Shown one piece after another: positions 11,389-17,715 of a stretch of DNA of 64,000 nt. The DNA lies in NCBI GenBank assembly GCA_030600545.1, contig JAUVLV010000006.1, positions 359 to 64,358 of the forward strand. Direction: 5' to 3'. Every line of letters starts with the position of its first letter. Positions within the stretch are counted from its first letter, which is position 1. The DNA comes from Candidatus Aegiribacteria sp. GTDB lineage: Bacteria > Fermentibacterota > Fermentibacteria > Fermentibacterales > JCC-6. The notes beneath the pieces were generated by a model. That model saw only the letters and a list, made by a program, of their open reading frames with translations, did no database searches and was not told the DNA's origin. Position numbers and translations under genes: made by a program.

Positions 11389-13140
11389 GTGATGCTAGTA
11401 TTTGTTTCATTGGTTATTTCTCTGGTCTCTGCAACGAGTGTTTCAATAACAGAACCGATTGATGGGGAAACCTACGATGGCGACTGGCTGACCGTTCGTG
11501 CAATTGTGGAGAATGAGAACGAAACTCCAGACTCAGTTCATTACAGTCTAAACGGCCTATCCGTTATTCAGATCCCCAGGCTGGACACTGATTGGCCAAC
11601 TTACATGCAGAATTACCAGAGGCATGGATACTCCGAATCACCGGCACCACATACATCAGATATTCTGTGGACTGCTCCGGTCTGCGGAGATTATCATGAA
11701 TTCCCAACTCCTGCGGTTGTGGATGGGACGGTATACTATCCACAGGACGGTGTTGGAGCGGGAGATACTCTCTTTGCTCTCGATTCAGCAACAGGTTCGA
11801 TAAAGTGGTCCTACCCGGTGGGATATACTGATGACACGGTTACACTCAAGAACGGTCTGCTTTATTCTGCATCGGATTCTCTTTTCTGCCTGGATGCAGG
11901 GACCGGAGCAAGGGTATGGGCATGGGGAGATGAAGCTGATTTCCACCAGACCGGCAGCCCTATCGTGACCAATGGTGTTGTGTATTTTGCCACTAGCCAT
12001 GATTATGACACTTCAAGAGTATATGCAGCAGACGCAGCATCGGGTCTGATCATCTGGGAGACCGGGTTCTCAGGTGCGCTTGAGACCAGTCTTGCATATT
12101 TCGATAATACCATATACATAGCTCTGTTTACAGATTTTATGGATTACGACGATCATGAGTCTTTGTTCGCTCTTGATGCCTCGTCCGGTTCCATTCTATG
12201 GTCTAACGACCATACCGATGGAGGATACTGGGACTCGTCTCCGAACATCTATGAAGGGATGCTGTACATCGATGGATGGGATGGTTGCCTGCACGCTTTC
12301 GATGCAGAGAATGGTGTTCTCGCATGGGAAACAGTATTACATCCCGCCTCCTATCTATTCGGTGTCGAACCAACACCCGCGATACATGATGATCTACTGT
12401 TTATCGGTTGCTGTTTCTACGGATGCGGAACGCCTTTCGGTTATGTAGGAGCTCACTCCACGACAACTGGTTCGGAAGTATGGAGTATTGTTGATAGGAT
12501 AGAGCTCCATGGCTCGTTCGGCCTGGCAGAAGATCTCGCATTCATAGGATCATTCACAAAAGACAGTATATTCGCATTCGATCAGTCAACCGGTGAGATC
12601 GAATGGGTTTATGGATTCCAGGGAACCAGGTATGATGGTTGTCAATCAAGCCCTTCCATAACAGATGGTGTCATGTATATCGCTGCAACTGACGGTAATC
12701 TTTACGCATTCGGCACAGGTCTCAAATTCACCTACCTTGATGATCTTTTCGCTGGAGTAGGAGCCAATGAATTGATAGCAACTTCCTTTTATGAAGGAGT
12801 TGCTATGGCAGTTGATACGATCAACTTCACCGTGACTGGTACTGGAATCGAACTTGATCCATTTCGCATGCTTCAGATCAGCGTAAGCCCTAATCCTTTC
12901 CATTCAACCGCAAGCATCTCGTTCGAGCTTGCAGAGCCTGGATGGACGATGGTGTCCGTGTACGACCTCTCGGGTAGGACCGTCAGAACACTAGAGAATT
13001 CAGAACTCGGAGCCGGTCAGCACTCAGTAGCCTGGGATGGAACAGGTGAAAACGGTGAGATTCTTGCAACAGGTGTCTATATCTGCAGAATACAATCCGG
13101 AGGATTTTCTAAAACCACAGGTCTGTGTCTGTTGAGATAG
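11389..13140 (+). CDS. Secreted PQQ-like beta-propeller protein with FlgD-Ig/T9SS-like C-terminal domain (cassette 3)
   Basis: Repeated ALDxxTGxxxW blades; C-terminal SPNPF...YDLSGR...WDG...GVYICR. Confidence 0.88.
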   Translation: MMLVFVSLVISLVSATSVSITEPIDGETYDGDWLTVRAIVENENETPDSVHYSLNGLSVIQIPRLDTDWPTYMQNYQRHGYSESPAPHTSDILWTAPVCGDYHEFPTPAVVDGTVYYPQDGVGAGDTLFALDSATGSIKWSYPVGYTDDTVTLKNGLLYSASDSLFCLDAGTGARVWAWGDEADFHQTGSPIVTNGVVYFATSHDYDTSRVYAADAASGLIIWETGFSGALETSLAYFDNTIYIALFTDFMDYDDHESLFALDASSGSILWSNDHTDGGYWDSSPNIYEGMLYIDGWDGCLHAFDAENGVLAWETVLHPASYLFGVEPTPAIHDDLLFIGCCFYGCGTPFGYVGAHSTTTGSEVWSIVDRIELHGSFGLAEDLAFIGSFTKDSIFAFDQSTGEIEWVYGFQGTRYDGCQSSPSITDGVMYIAATDGNLYAFGTGLKFTYLDDLFAGVGANELIATSFYEGVAMAVDTINFTVTGTGIELDPFRMLQISVSPNPFHSTASISFELAEPGWTMVSVYDLSGRTVRTLENSELGAGQHSVAWDGTGENGEILATGVYICRIQSGGFSKTTGLCLLR

Positions 13141-13143
13141 GAA

Positions 13144-13223
13144 CCATAACCAGAGGCTGCAGTGGAATACTACTCGCTGAATCCAATTCCTTGTAGGACT
13201 ATCCACTGAGCCTATTGTTTGGT
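13144..13223 (+). repeat. attC site 3 (80 bp)
   Basis: CCATAAC-CAGAGGCTGCAGTGGAATA...TATCCACTGAGCCTATT-GTTTGGT; CCATAAC complements GTTATGG of attC2. Confidence 0.9.
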
Positions 13224-13232
13224 ACAAGACAT

Positions 13233-13826
13233 ATGAATGGAAACAAACGACGGTACACCGTTCGCCAAGCTACGGAAGCAGATTTACCCGTCCTTGCGGA
13301 CATCAAGTCACCAATGGCCATCCACAAAGACCGCCTTCTGGATGCGGACAGCGAGAAAATGCTCTACATGATTATTGAGGAATTCGGTACTGTTATTGGA
13401 TTCGGACTTCTCGTTTTCAAGCGTCCACCCACTTGGCCTGACGCTAACGACAGCTCCCATCTCCCGGCGATGGTCGACTTGCTTGTCAGCCCGGACCGTC
13501 GGAGTCGTGGTGCGGGATCATTCCTCATCAGTTGGATGGAGGAAACCATACGCTCCAGAGGAGGTAACCATTTGTACATGTGCGTGGACCCGGTCGATAA
13601 TCCAAGAGCCCATCAACTCTACCTGCGTCTGGGATACTCAACTCTCCAGACACAGCCATACAGGTCACATTGGAAGTTCGCGGATTCTGACGGAAACGTG
13701 CACGAAGGAAACGTATGGAACATTGATATGGTGAAGGATCTAAGTCAGAAAACACGGGGGTCACCCAACACTTATGAGGCCACCCTCTGTCAAGGGGCAA
13801 AGTTCGTCACTGACAGCATGTGCTAA
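13233..13826 (+). CDS. GNAT N-acetyltransferase (cassette 4); C-terminus runs into IS sequence
   Basis: VSPDRRSRGAGS acetyl-CoA motif, NPRAHQLYLRLGY; ATG 13233 used because the track start 13215 lies inside attC3. Confidence 0.85.
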   Translation: MNGNKRRYTVRQATEADLPVLADIKSPMAIHKDRLLDADSEKMLYMIIEEFGTVIGFGLLVFKRPPTWPDANDSSHLPAMVDLLVSPDRRSRGAGSFLISWMEETIRSRGGNHLYMCVDPVDNPRAHQLYLRLGYSTLQTQPYRSHWKFADSDGNVHEGNVWNIDMVKDLSQKTRGSPNTYEATLCQGAKFVTDSMC

Positions 13827-14249
13827 CTGTTTTCATTTATCGTCTTGTATTCAGTCTTCGCGTTCTGTCTTAGTTTCAATATCAGGTTCTGCGCCAAACA
13901 CTTATCGAGGATCTGCGGCTCATCCTTGATGAACCGGGAAGGATTCTTCCTTCTCGTCCTAGAAACACATACGTTCCCTCATGCCGTCCCATTCACAACG
14001 TCGGGCTGAATGCCGTAGCATTCACCAGTTAGCTCCGGGTTCGGGGGAGGAGCAGAACACTTCATCGAATACTTATCATTTCTGCGGGAGCGAAGCGACC
14101 ATCCAATCAAAGCGTATGTTTACCTGGAATGCGCTGAGGTACCTTCATCCTGGTCAAGGCCAGATTCTCTCGAAGTTTCTCTTCGAGGGTACTCATCCAG
14201 CTTCTTCCTTTCGGTCACAGTTAGCTGTTCGGCTTGGCCGCTCCCTCCC
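13770..14249 (-). ncRNA. Candidate bridge/seek RNA region; exact RNA ends unknown
   Basis: 480-nt region downstream of the IS110 recombinase with many hairpins, a C(UACG)G tetraloop and copies of the element-end motif. Confidence 0.6.
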
Positions 14250-15296
14250 TTATACTCTGAGGAATTTTTTCATATCGAATGCCTTCTCGCGCTTTAGCAT
14301 ATAGTAGACCGTTCTTCCAAGCTTGTGGGCAAGGATGAAAAGAGACTTGGCTTTGCCATGTTTTCTCTCCAGCCGCTTCTTGTACTTCATCCCTTCCGAA
14401 TTTCCACGCAGGAACAGTACAGCAGCTTCGGAGAACGTCCACTTCAGATGAACATTCCCGATCTTGCTTCCGGAAGTTCCATATCGTTTTCCGGCGGATT
14501 CTCTGGCACATTTCACCAGCCTGCTGTATGAAGCAAAGTTCTGCACCCTCGGGAAGCGGTTAATGTCTCCTATCTCGTAGAGAATCGTCAGAGACAAGAT
14601 TTTCCCGATTCCATAAATGGTTCGGAGCAGGTGAAGTGACTGTGGATCATGGTTCTTTGCATTGCTCAGAACATGCTTTTTCATGGCTCTGATCTGAACT
14701 GCAAATTGGTCTATCATATCCATATTGGTCTTCATACTCATGTATACATTCGGATCGGTGAAGTGACTCAGAACCTCTTCACGGCGACATTTGTGAGTGA
14801 TATTGGAAGTGCCGAAGAGAGGCTGATTGTACTGGCTGTTCGTGTTCTGAACATGGGTGATAAGATCAGCCCTCTTCCGAACCAGGTAATTTCTTCTTCT
14901 CAGAAGATCTCTCGTTGCCCTCATCTTCGCAGGATAGACATAGGCCATGGGGAACATTCCGCCTTTGAGCATGACAGCTATCTTTCCCGAATCTATCCTG
15001 TCGTTCTTGGCTTTTCCGCCATGGATGGCTTTCATGTACAAGGCATGACCAAGAGTGAAAGGTATTCCTTCCTCTGCACATAGATCCGCCACCCAGTACC
15101 AGGTGAAGATGCATTCCACTCCGATGACTATATCCGGTCTGTATGGTTCGATAGCTTTGAGAAGGGATTCCGGATCAGCTTTCATGTTCCGGTGAAGAAC
15201 GATTTCACCATCTGAACTGATGATGCAGAGATACATCACCCTGGCGTGTAGGTCGATGCCGCAGTAATATTGGTGTGTGGTAGTATAGAATCTCAT
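14250..15296 (-). CDS. IS110-family DEDD transposase/recombinase
   Basis: GIDLH, GVEC and KNDRID (DEDD); GIGKIL; ESAGK with candidate catalytic Ser; RBS AGGAGG. Confidence 0.95.
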   Translation of the reverse strand: MRFYTTTHQYYCGIDLHARVMYLCIISSDGEIVLHRNMKADPESLLKAIEPYRPDIVIGVECIFTWYWVADLCAEEGIPFTLGHALYMKAIHGGKAKNDRIDSGKIAVMLKGGMFPMAYVYPAKMRATRDLLRRRNYLVRKRADLITHVQNTNSQYNQPLFGTSNITHKCRREEVLSHFTDPNVYMSMKTNMDMIDQFAVQIRAMKKHVLSNAKNHDPQSLHLLRTIYGIGKILSLTILYEIGDINRFPRVQNFASYSRLVKCARESAGKRYGTSGSKIGNVHLKWTFSEAAVLFLRGNSEGMKYKKRLERKHGKAKSLFILAHKLGRTVYYMLKREKAFDMKKFLRV

Positions 15297-15732
15297 TGGG
15301 TCTCCTCCTTGTTAGGGAAAAAGTTATCACCCTCAGCATACCAGAATGGCATGCCGAGGGGGAGGCCTCAATGAGTATCAGAGGAATCTGGTTCACTCCT
15401 GATCATTGTGAAACATATACTCAATTAGGAGGTGCTTCAGGGATTCCTGACAGGAATATTTTCCAGAATATTGTTAGTGGTGCAGTTGATATTGCTATAG
15501 CACCTTTTTCGGCCTTTCAGGATTATCTGATAGAGATTCAGCAGGTATCTATTCCGTTTCATATGAAATCTTCAGGCAGAATCCCAGAACTCTTGAATAT
15601 CTTGCAGCAGCACCAGCAGATACCGGTAATTTCGGAGAAAGATTCCTTATGGGGATGTGTGATGAGCTTCCTAATGGAAATTCGCCTTGATACCGGGCAA
15701 TATTCCCTGAATCGAATTCCGCTATTAAGGTT

Positions 15733-15884
15733 TGATCAATGACTCAGTCATGGTCGAAAAGTATACTTCCAGGTTTTCTCGATCGGAACCTGATGGTTAC
15801 TTTTTCTTCTGCTTCGCCTGTTTCCTGGCGAGGCTGATAACAGTTCTCGCTGCAGCGATTCTTATCTCCCTGGAATCGTTCCTG
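15733..15884. repeat. Diverged direct repeat, copy A (duplicate of GGDEF-HEAT gene 3' end and downstream flank)
   Basis: 152 bp, 10 mismatches by hand count versus 17564-17715. Confidence 0.95.
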
Positions 15885-16653
15885 CCCAGTTTCGAAGAAT
15901 CTCCGGGAAAAGCTTTACCCTAAGGAGGTCGTTCCTTCCGGGAACGAATGGTTCCACATCCCTTACAAGGTCATCAATGCTTCTTTCGCCAAGGCGATTT
16001 AATATAAGCTCCTCGATCTTATTTCTGGAAGAAATCTGAACCTTCTGCTCAAGGAAATTCATATCCGGTTTTGTGATTCCGAATAGATGAGAGGCGTCAT
16101 AAAGATCACGACCCATGATTCTCCTGCGGTTCAGTATGGCATATAGCTTCTGGGCCAGAATCAGTTCAGCGGGAGCTGCAGGTACTGGAACGATCACATC
16201 CAGGCGGTTCAGCACCTTTACCCGCGGTGTATAGCTATACCGCTGCGGTGAAGCGTCAAACTTGAGGGTGAGCACCTCATCTCTATGGCGCGTGAGTTCC
16301 CACTGTTGAAGGATATTAGTGAATCTGAACTTTGTTGAAAACGCGGTTCCTCTGCCAAAAGATATATTGCACTCAACAGCCTCTAATTTGAATTCATTAA
16401 CTGCTGTCAGGGCTATTCGCTGAAGAGCATCACCGGAAAGGTTCTTTGAATCAAAGTCAAGATCTTCGGAAAACCTGCTGCTTCCATAGAATACTCTCAA
16501 TGCTGTTCCACCCATGAAAACCAGTCCGCTGCTTTCCTTCGCTCTGAAAATGAACTGAAGTGTTTTGTACTGCAGGTATTCCCTTAGCATGGCTCTTTTA
16601 AAGGTATCGGGAATGCCGGGGAAAGCGTCATAGACGATCGAATGGTCAAGCAT
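15862..16653 (-). CDS. abiEii: AbiEii-type nucleotidyltransferase toxin (type IV TA)
   Basis: FMGGTALR, RFSEDLDF, AQKL, RDLYD. Confidence 0.92.
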   Translation of the reverse strand: MLDHSIVYDAFPGIPDTFKRAMLREYLQYKTLQFIFRAKESSGLVFMGGTALRVFYGSSRFSEDLDFDSKNLSGDALQRIALTAVNEFKLEAVECNISFGRGTAFSTKFRFTNILQQWELTRHRDEVLTLKFDASPQRYSYTPRVKVLNRLDVIVPVPAAPAELILAQKLYAILNRRRIMGRDLYDASHLFGITKPDMNFLEQKVQISSRNKIEELILNRLGERSIDDLVRDVEPFVPGRNDLLRVKLFPEILRNWAGTIPGR

Positions 16654-17260
16654 TTTTCATCACCTCAATCAATATTTTTACCTTCCTTGTCAGCCAGGGC
16701 TTGTTGAACCGTTCTGCCATGTCGAGGATCTCCATTGGATCCAATCCGCTAAAAGTCTCCGTGTCAAAACGTAGTTCCAGCATATCCTCCGCCGAGCTGA
16801 TATCCCTCCTGAAGTAGAGCAGATCAACAACCGCTCTCTCCGGAAAAGCCATAAGATATCTGTGATTTCTTCCCGTCTTTGCTTCATAACCGAAGAGATA
16901 CTCCGGCTGAATGCTTCTGTATATGAATGTGCATAGAGGTGAATCGATGCGACGGGTCTTTCTTGTGCAGACAGAAGTGACAGAAAGAACTGTCTCCGGA
17001 ATGAGCTCGTAAAATGAAAGTGCTGATTCCAGAGAAACGAACGAGGGTGTGTATATCCTGCCGGCAATTGCAAATAGATCGGTCTCTTCACTGGTTTCCC
17101 CCGTTAGAACATAGTATCCGGGAGCCACCATTATGATCTTTCCGCTACGGTTCCACCTGGAAAGGGTTTCCTGACGAAGACCGGGCATTGTGCTCCTTAC
17201 ATCAGCAAGTGAAACAACCGGCAACTTCTTCGCTATTTCAGCAAATTCGTGCAACCTCAA
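16646..17260 (-). CDS. abiEi: AbiEi-type antitoxin / transcriptional regulator
   Basis: PSFVSLESALSFYELIPE, PERAVVDLLY; overlaps the toxin start. Confidence 0.88.
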   Translation of the reverse strand: MRLHEFAEIAKKLPVVSLADVRSTMPGLRQETLSRWNRSGKIIMVAPGYYVLTGETSEETDLFAIAGRIYTPSFVSLESALSFYELIPETVLSVTSVCTRKTRRIDSPLCTFIYRSIQPEYLFGYEAKTGRNHRYLMAFPERAVVDLLYFRRDISSAEDMLELRFDTETFSGLDPMEILDMAERFNKPWLTRKVKILIEVMKNA

Positions 17261-17563: not shown

Positions 17564-17715
17564 TGATTAATGACTCAGTCATGGTCGAAAAGTGTACTTC
17601 CAGGTTTTCTCGATCGGAACCTGATGGTTACTTTTTCTTCTGCTTCGCCTGTTTCCTTGCGAGGCTGATGACTGTTCTGGCTGCTGCGATCCTTACCTCC
17701 CTGGAATCGTGCCTG
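17564..17715. repeat. Diverged direct repeat, copy B
   Basis: Matches 15733-15884 at offset 1831. Confidence 0.95.

Follow-up and report, generated by a model that had tools for sequence, protein, structure and literature searches.

The 64-kb window analysed here, the whole stretch of 64,000 nucleotides from a Candidatus Aegiribacteria genome, contains on its minus strand an insertion sequence (IS) of the IS110 family, IS1111 group, in which the transposase gene is followed by a long non-coding region. In all likelihood, positions 13860-14249 within this 3' non-coding region encode a minus-strand bridge RNA (seekRNA) belonging to a family that targets attC sites, with the copy in the window itself lying outside such a site. 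A sequence-only reading of the stretch had proposed an unusually long guide RNA of two homologous modules at this place, and a recheck of the window letters recovered every motif that it listed. The parts of the element are:

13769-15380, minus strand: IS110-family, IS1111-group element, with the TG core counted at both junctions
13767-13768, outside the element: TT in element sense, target-derived according to the empty-site comparison
14250-15296, minus strand: transposase/recombinase of 348 amino acids (aa), matching Pfam DEDD_Tnp_IS110 and Transposase_20 and NCBIfam NF033542
15297-15380, minus strand: left end, with core TG, a -10-like GATACT and the subterminal inverted repeat TGAGGCC (15364-15370)
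13769-13885, minus strand: right-end tail, with a -35-like TTGACA (13788-13793), the subterminal inverted repeat GGCCUCA (13775-13781) and core TG (13769-13770)

The transposase matches PF01548 (DEDD, RuvC-like, N-terminal; 5.7e-13) and PF02371 (C-terminal; 8.7e-18), scores 199.8 bits against NF033542, the "IS110 family RNA-guided transposase" model (cut-off 140), and aligns through its C-terminal domain to the IS621 transposase 8wt6 (E 1.7e-6). In its own genome (74 contigs, 73% complete), the similarity of further copies to the query 13700-15500 starts and stops exactly at 13767 and 15380, and the ends in element sense read TGATACTCATTGAGGCC... on the left and ...GGCCTCATAAGTGTT on the right. 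The subterminal inverted repeats, matching at 12 of 14 positions, are offset from both tips (left TGAGGCCTCCCCCT versus reverse-complemented right TGAGGCCACCCTCT), and the transposase gene has 483 nt of non-coding DNA on its downstream side (13767-14249) and 84 nt on its upstream side (15297-15380). A long downstream non-coding region and subterminal inverted repeats are traits of the IS1111 group (PMC11187229, PMC11208160), for which transposases of about 330-350 aa are reported (PMC11187229); the element thus combines the DEDD and PF02371 domains, the downstream non-coding region, inverted repeats within the expected 7-17 bp and a protein of 348 aa. The window copy is intact, with a full-length transposase, both ends and all helices of the RNA described below. 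Two other copies in the genome, on contigs C3 (locus L002) and C4 (locus L003), have internal deletions of the transposase gene (window-equivalent positions 14664-15002 and 14914-15069), with both ends and the entire downstream non-coding region intact, and two right-end fragments lie on contigs C26 and C30. In the non-autonomous locus L011 (G025:C111), which lacks the transposase gene, an 83-nt left end is fused straight to the full non-coding region, and on the whole the transposase-less or transposase-deleted derivatives (L011 and the C3 and C4 copies) retain the entire RNA region.

Of 60 genomes in the same family, 16 (with its own included) were found to carry the non-coding DNA of the element, among them 12 of 25 sister genomes of its own genus and 3 of 19 of a second genus. 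Protein-guided scans recovered at least 415 relatives in one-genome-per-species contigs and at least 582 in metagenome contigs. Among the matches listed, the closest named records are metagenome-assembled genomes (MAGs) of Candidatus Aegiribacteria and Sabulitectum, with 78-91% identity, and the remaining relatives, at 58-71% identity, are spread over many phyla. A nucleotide profile built on 15 close non-coding regions and searched against 159 related loci, whose transposases are 58-91% identical, matched 151 stretches, many of which cover all 498 profile positions, and the left end is likewise conserved from profile position 1. The approximately 500 nt of non-coding DNA accompanying these transposases are thus a conserved part of a large IS family. 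The TGAGGCC/GGCCTCA repeat is kept across this family, and TTGACA and the right-end sequence are nearly invariant. None of the best 120 protein relatives or the plasmid matches carries an IS name, all being labelled only "IS110 family transposase". The best plasmid matches (51-60% identical) come from marine bacteria, all plasmid matches are at most 60% identical, and the only Pseudomonas aeruginosa plasmid match among the best 25 is 31% identical. One family member with 57% protein identity resides on a plasmid of a cultured strain, Vibrio campbellii ATCC BAA-1116 (L196; NC_022271.1, 2420-4010), where it has the same three-loop non-coding region. Its neighbours there are an IS4 transposase and a further gene of the IS110 family, and this member would lend itself well to experiments.

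The structure of the non-coding region was examined in an alignment of 38 diverse homologues. These were left of 43 full-length sequences after removal of one carrying a 545-nt insert and of every row that was 93% or more identical to a retained one. The RNAalifold consensus contains 46 pairs, 31 of them with compensatory changes. In this consensus 96.2% of the cells are paired, as against 81.9% after shuffling and 35.5-49.3% when the partners are slid by 1-3 columns; the covariation score of 0.476 was reached in none of 500 shuffles (0.196 shuffled) and falls to at most 0.096 upon sliding. Read on the transposase-sense strand, the 1745 cells include 85 G.U against 25 A.C combinations, and this excess of G.U indicates that the RNA corresponds to the transposase-sense, that is, the minus strand. 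Folded by itself, the window RNA reaches -126.7 kcal/mol (z -2.5). The conserved structured part spans about 364 nt, which bears out the unusual length claimed from the sequence alone, given that the characterised seekRNAs measure 82-96 nt (short) or 148-172 nt (long), hence 82-172 nt overall, as described in PMC13604230. The elements of the RNA are:

14086-14249, minus strand: stem-loop A, the putative target-binding loop, with a closing helix of 14235-14249 with 14086-14101
14219-14230, minus strand: candidate right-target guide GAACAGCU, followed by AA (pairing with target TT) and CU opposite the core; hypervariable, covarying with the flank
14102-14116, minus strand: candidate left-target guide UACGCUU, core UG, handshake AU and a conserved UGG; hypervariable, covarying with the flank
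14057-14085, minus strand: linker with the variable "patch 3", single-stranded in the consensus fold
13886-14058, minus strand: module B, a multi-branch domain whose closing strands are GUUCUGC (14052-14058) and GCAGAAC (13886-13892)
13976-14051, minus strand: B1 stem-loop, with 5' loop GGAGCUAACU (14027-14036), hairpin 14004-14026 and 3' loop CGACGUUGUGAAU (13991-14003)
13961-13970, minus strand: candidate right-donor guide AUGUGUUUCU, whose pairing partner is the left end at +10 to +1; covariation at column 297
13908-13960, minus strand: inner stem-loops of the donor multi-loop, AGGAC (13956-13960) with GAUCCU (13908-13913)
13892-13907, minus strand: candidate left-donor guide AUAAG (13901-13905), core UG (13899-13900), handshake UU (13897-13898), then UGG

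The closing helix of loop A comprises 15 bp, of which 14 are changed on both sides; the sequence-only reading had recognised the complementarity of 14086-14101 with 14235-14245, and this helix proves to covary across homologues. The hairpins it had placed at 14007-14024 and 14169-14187 are also present. Conserved and covarying across the 38 homologues are the closing helix, the 14007-14024 hairpin and both loops of the CUAACUG / UGAUUGG type. Module B was derived from RNAalifold on 72 sequences, and the fold of the 38 homologues recovers 4 of its closing pairs, 2 of them compensatory. The inner stem of the donor multi-loop has 5 pairs, 3 of them compensatory, and is 98.4% paired. The guides sit in unpaired strands of this consensus fold.

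Comparison of close copies reveals three hypervariable patches, two of which face each other across the internal loop of stem-loop A, the 3' patch preceding an invariant UGAUUGG and the 5' patch preceding AACUG. The 3' patch matches the copy's own left flank at 6 of 7 positions in L003 and at 5 of 7 in L002, L012, L014 and L025; in L011, L015 and L034 only 0-1 of 7 positions agree. The 5' patch complements the right flank in L002 (CAGCUAA with TTAGCTG) and partially in others. Family-wide, the 3' strand agrees with the left flank at 3.69 of 8 positions versus 2.64 in permuted pairings (n=80, z 8.4, 0 of 2000 permutations), and the 5' strand with the right flank at 3.65 versus 3.10 (n=71, z 4.7, 0 of 2000). 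The highest mutual information links profile columns 153/154 to flank positions -3/-2, and the family consensus right guide, G(Y)CUAAC, pairs with GTTAG(R)C. Loop A thus carries guides which match and covary with both target strands, as expected of a bridge RNA or seekRNA, and the complement of the top strand stands 5' of that of the bottom strand. The same guide order and downstream position are reported for IS1111 seekRNAs (PMC11187229). The close copies display natural retargeting through diversified guides.

These observations bear on a different explanation, according to which the structure is a cis-acting element of the 3' untranslated region or of the DNA itself, concerned with mRNA stability, translation control or transposase binding to DNA repeats, and duplication of the ends has given rise to the matches to ends and flanks, which would then not be guides. 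The internal ATAAGTGTT could be such a duplicated DNA end, many copies mismatch their own flanks, and both expression and binding of the RNA are predictions. However, the compensatory changes and the one-strand G.U pairs point to RNA, and the two hypervariable patches on opposite loop strands covary with two different flanks in the orientation expected of guides. Furthermore, derivatives which have lost the transposase gene wholly or in part (L011, C3, C4) retain the whole region, and homologous systems are experimentally RNA-guided, as reported in PMC11187229 and PMC11208160. We regard a cis-acting element as very improbable and prefer the interpretation as a bridge RNA.

The donor guides of this RNA appear to lie in the multi-loop of module B. 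The internal AUAAGUGUU (13897-13905) is identical to the right end of the element; as noted in the sequence-only reading, AACACTTAT occurs exactly twice in the window, at 13767 and at 13897, the latter occurrence being the left-donor guide. The internal ATAAGTGTT also covaries with the actual right end: profile column 363 against right-end position -6 gives A/A in 74 cases, G/G in 20 and C/C in 8, with 14 mismatches. For the right-donor guide, column 297 (13968) against left-end position +8 gives G-C in 49 cases, A-T in 30, U.G in 10 and U-A in 3, with 18 mismatches, and in the Vibrio campbellii plasmid element the guide AATATGTGTT matches that element's own end CATATGTGTT. Both element ends are thus matched, the left one mainly through a single covarying pair, and on these sequence comparisons the right-donor guide would be the weaker of the two assignments. 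[quoted passage not shown] The sequence-only reading had instead pointed to TACTCAT (14190-14196) as the complement of the other element end. It is indeed the reverse complement of 15371-15377, but as a right-donor guide the corresponding ATGAGUA was rejected, since it is lost in close copies whose left end is unchanged; TACTCAT occurs three times and ATGAGTA twice in the window, and the match is probably due to chance or specific to the lineage. On the whole, the claim of a minus-strand guide RNA with target and donor parts is borne out by the covariation of the helices, the excess of G.U pairs and the covariation of guides with both flanks and ends; the alignment of homologous non-coding regions that had been suggested as its check gave signals for target and donor alike.

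The organisation of the core follows from sites without an insertion. In the uninterrupted ortholog L213 the two flank matches stand 4 nt apart, separated by TGTT (..CCTC-TGTT-AGCT.. in element sense), with TATT replacing TGTT in the orthologous sites L214 and L215, and unoccupied attC-like sites elsewhere read ...T-(T/G/C)G-TT-RGGY. These sites indicate that the empty target contains one xG core followed by TT, from which it follows that TG is present at both junctions after insertion and that the terminal TT (13767-13768) belongs to the target. The first core base varies at right junctions (T 88, G 24, A 6, C 3), which fits an xG core. In the RNA, the 3' strands read guide-UG-dinucleotide, the dinucleotide being AU, the first bases of the element, in loop A and UU, the target TT, in the donor loop. 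By analogy, these dinucleotides may correspond to the handshake dinucleotides described for IS621 (PMC13626964).

With respect to the target, the logo of 90 non-redundant loci reads C-n-G-C-T-G-C-A-N5-T | A/G/C-G-G-C, and insertion across the family occurs at nG|TTRRRY, with the consensus nG|TTRGGC. The R' core of attC sites is GTTRRRY. By eye, motifs of the GCCGAAC or another RYYYAAC type are seen 50-105 nt upstream, together with paired arms with single extra bases (GGCAG-T-CGGC), followed by ...nG-TT-RGGC. The tests of this resemblance were repeated with corrected empty sites once the TG core had been recognised. In DNA minimum-energy folds the R' GTT pairs with an AAC at least 40 nt upstream in 27 of 74 loci, as opposed to 23 of 232 control GTT windows (odds ratio 5.2, p 7e-7). 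The target windows fold at -21.6 kcal/mol versus -14.7 kcal/mol for windows 250 nt further upstream, and are the lower in 49 of 65 comparisons. Of the 25 sister genomes, 15 have an integron integrase scoring above the curated cut-off; among those that bear the element the number is 10 of 12, among the others 5 of 13 (Fisher p 0.04, with relatives that are not independent). Contig C4 of the own genome contains two attC-like sites 1.1 kb apart, one of them occupied by the C4 copy; the unoccupied one, at about G000:C4 5150-5212 (L003), reads ..GTTCAAC..GTCGGCTGCATGCGTT-GG-TTGGGC and lies upstream of that copy. Taken together, these observations support the wider family targeting the attC R' core, and insertion at such a site was found for the family and for the C4 copy in the own genome. 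The likeness of the GCUAAC guide to an attC inverse core, remarked upon earlier, is sustained to the extent that it pairs with GTTAGC-type attC cores and that the family targets attC-like sites.

It could be argued that the RNA is a bridge RNA as described but that its target is a generic GC-rich palindromic repeat, resembling repetitive extragenic palindromic (REP) sequences or terminators, rather than attC. R''/R' pairing was indeed recovered in only 27 of the 74 reconstructed sites, the exact inverse-core test with corrected sites is weak (24 of 74 with at most one mismatch versus 19.2 expected from permuted loci), the own genome yielded no integrase, only a single copy (fragment G009:C26) shares a contig with an intI fragment, and attC-likeness was judged from motifs and minimum-energy folds. 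Against this, the consensus nG|TTRGGC fits GTTRRRY, the RYYYAAC-type motifs (GCCGAAC) occur at the upstream distance given above, the arms paired around single extra bases are seen by eye, paralogous sites without an insertion are found on the same contigs at spacings of about 1 kb, and integrases are commoner in the element-bearing sister genomes, within the limits already stated. We consider a generic palindromic target unlikely and favour attC. The fragment on G009:C26 (17440-19627; L018) is a right end about 1.3 kb from an integron-integrase fragment, which scores 258 bits, just below the cut-off.

The window copy does not conform to the family pattern. It is located in an ordinary gene at ...CCTC-TG-TT-AGCTG..., so that the attC targeting proposed earlier holds for the family but not for this copy. 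Its left guide, UACGCUU, does not match this site. Its right guide GAACAGCUAA matches the right half of the site, now joined to the C3 copy, and also matches the flanks of the right-end fragments L018 (flank TT-AGCTGTTA) and L006. The left flank of the window copy (15381-15710, plus strand) and the right flank of the C3 copy (L002 2395-2500) are the halves of one gene, which is uninterrupted in the sister genomes L213, L214 and L215; the window and C3 copies have therefore swapped flanks, either by recombination between IS copies or through an assembly join. The loci L009 (G005:C146) and L116 (a metagenome contig) share the same left flank and nearly the same element and differ in their right flanks, which is another sign of flank exchange between copies. 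A search of the own genome, which is 73% complete, for a cognate target of the window RNA gave a best site with 2 mismatches in 18 and no exact one. Within the lineage of the Candidatus Aegiribacteria MAGs the guides have diversified, and those of the window copy have moved away from the family consensus.

Several results weigh against an attC-targeting bridge RNA and qualify the probability that we attach to it. The guides of the window copy match its own flanks at only 2 of 7 positions on the left and 4 of 8 on the right; family-wide only about 50-60% of guide positions match the copy's own flank, and the permutation statistics overstate the guide signal because related copies are not independent. 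The register of the right-donor guide depends mainly on one covarying position and places U opposite T at +1, +4 and +7. The B1 stem-loop is conserved and yet is explained neither by flanks nor by ends nor by predicted sites. R''/R' pairing is limited to the fraction of sites given above, and the inverse-core test with the initial, wrong empty site was not significant (5 exact versus 1.7 expected; 15 with at most one mismatch versus about 13); on the same wrong sites, AA was the partner of the core TT in the minimum-energy fold of only 8 of 65. A search of the own genome, at its 73% completeness, gave no integron integrase. A search of Rfam with 13000-16000, at E-values up to 10, returned only four noise matches to small nucleolar and long non-coding RNA models, and no RNA sequencing runs were listed as containing the sequence, so that production and binding of the RNA are predictions.

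On the minus strand of the linear element neither a promoter-like nor a terminator-like site was found. When circle junctions were computed, 82 of the 96 distinct ones contained TTGACA in their right end; 69 of these give TTGACA-18 nt-GATACT and 6 give GATAAT. A promoter at the circle junction is known for ISEc11 (PMC11187229), and we infer one here by analogy. By comparison with IS621 and ISEc11, the excised circle would join the right and left ends to form the TTGACA-18-GATACT promoter, which would drive the transposase mRNA, with the guide RNA derived from its 3' part. The 5' strand of loop A (N8-AA-CU) would then pair with the top strand of the target, comprising the core G, TT and the right flank. 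The 3' strand (N6-7, UG, AU) would read as the left flank followed by the TG core and the element's first two bases, and could pair with the bottom strand while supplying the handshake dinucleotide. The donor would be read in the multi-loop, where AUGUGUUUCU would pair with the left end and AUAAG-UG-UU would carry the sequences of the right end, the core and the target TT, and recombination would take place at the TG core. In this scheme the family guide G(Y)CUAAC would imitate the attC inverse core (RYYYAAC), leading to insertion beside the G|TT of the R' core.

The system is of a known kind (IS1111 seekRNA, IS110 bridge RNA) in an unusually long, three-loop form, and the known principle is unchanged; the family or its three-branch fold may already be catalogued in ISfinder or in the supplements of the 2024 papers. 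With ISEc11, ISPa11, ISKpn4 and ISPst6 it shares a DEDD transposase of 330-350 aa, subterminal inverted repeats, a downstream non-coding region, a top-strand match 5' of the bottom-strand match and a circle-junction promoter, predicted here (PMC11187229). It differs from the characterised IS1111 seekRNAs in its extra target-like loop. ISKpn4 and ISPst6 likewise target attC sites (PMC11187229), but ISKpn4 is reported to insert at GAA*CG, 6 nt upstream of GTT (PMC13604230), whereas here insertion is at nG|TT of R' itself and hence not at the point used by ISKpn4. Neither ISKpn4 nor ISPst6 was located in the sequence collections searched, and the family differs from both in insertion point and in the size of its RNA. 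The predicted IS1111 bridge RNAs (Durrant et al. 2024, PMC11208160) have in common with it a right-end RNA and donor nucleotides in a multi-loop, and IS621 the same recombinase family and handshake dinucleotides after the core (PMC11208160, PMC11208158, PMC13626964). Whereas the RNA of IS621 lies upstream of the gene, the RNA here lies downstream, and has a reversed guide order, a TG core, donor guides in a multi-loop and a third loop. Reportedly, the IS621 bridge RNA is 177 nt long, its core is CT and its two internal loops are simple.

Tools for genome editing are under development from RNA-guided bridge recombinases, whose mechanism has been studied almost entirely on IS621. The present family, with its hundreds of genomic and metagenomic relatives, would offer many IS1111-type RNAs with assignable guides, a TG core, handshakes and a third loop, and the diversified guides of the Aegiribacteria copies are a case of retargeting in nature. 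Insertion at the attC G|TT crossover by means of an inverse-core-like guide would block or reshape cassette arrays, and would give IS1111 elements a second route, apparently a separate one, by which to parasitise integrons.

The third loop, B1, has stems that are 98-100% paired and covarying in the 38 homologues, and its frame is that of the target loop, with N-CUAA-CU-GG on one strand, N-UG-AAUGG on the other and variable "guide" positions. This likeness underlies the similarities first seen in the window, namely CAGTTAGC..GTTCGG at 14026-14044 and 14218-14232, and CCATTCACAACGT (13989-14001) with CCAATCAAAGCGT (14103-14115), matching at 10 of 13 positions. The notion of two homologous modules therefore stands in so far as loop A and B1 resemble each other, but the pair does not consist of a target loop and a donor loop: the donor guides are found elsewhere, at 13961-13970 and 13897-13905, and B1 covaries with neither flank. 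As a second reader of the insertion site B1 was rejected, its loop strands giving z values of 1.8 and 1.6 against the flanks; sites predicted from B1 had no consistent place in 44 loci, and by eye its loop strands gave no match to the element ends. That B1 is a third programmable DNA-binding loop, making the RNA tri-specific for the target R' core, the donor and a second site on DNA, for instance an alternative target or the opposite end of the folded attC, is a speculative proposal to which we assign little likelihood. If true, one bridge RNA would coordinate the recognition of three DNA sites, in a family that usurps the crossover point of the integron integrase.

Patch 3 of the linker was also rejected as a guide, the best of 14 offsets tried family-wide giving z 2.3. 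In L002 the linker patch GUAUUCnnnUG agrees with 8 nt of that copy's left flank (TATTCGAT), and in L009 with 7 nt (ATTCAGT). The repeated ACTTATC..TCTGCGG of the sequence-only reading is present at 13900-13918 and 14071-14087; the second copy, CCGCAG..GAUAAGU in the RNA, sits in the linker, which is not conserved family-wide, and is probably a chance or lineage-specific occurrence.

In the neighbourhood of the element, an open reading frame (ORF) for a GNAT acetyltransferase (13215-13826, plus strand; Pfam Acetyltransf_1, 1.1e-12) extends 60 nt into the element, so that the IS provides the stop codon and 3' end that it now has. On the other side, the two copies of a 152-nt direct repeat (15733-15884 and 17564-17715; 1831 nt apart and 93% identical) enclose a gene for an AbiEii toxin (15862-16653, 72.6 bits) and another that is weakly AbiEi-like (16646-17260, 19.9 bits, under the cut-off), in an arrangement that has the look of a cassette. 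As attC sites these repeats were not established, given that they form several small hairpins and no single attC-like hairpin. Near the C3 copy, at distances of about 100 nt and 2.3 kb, pieces of this repeat recur.

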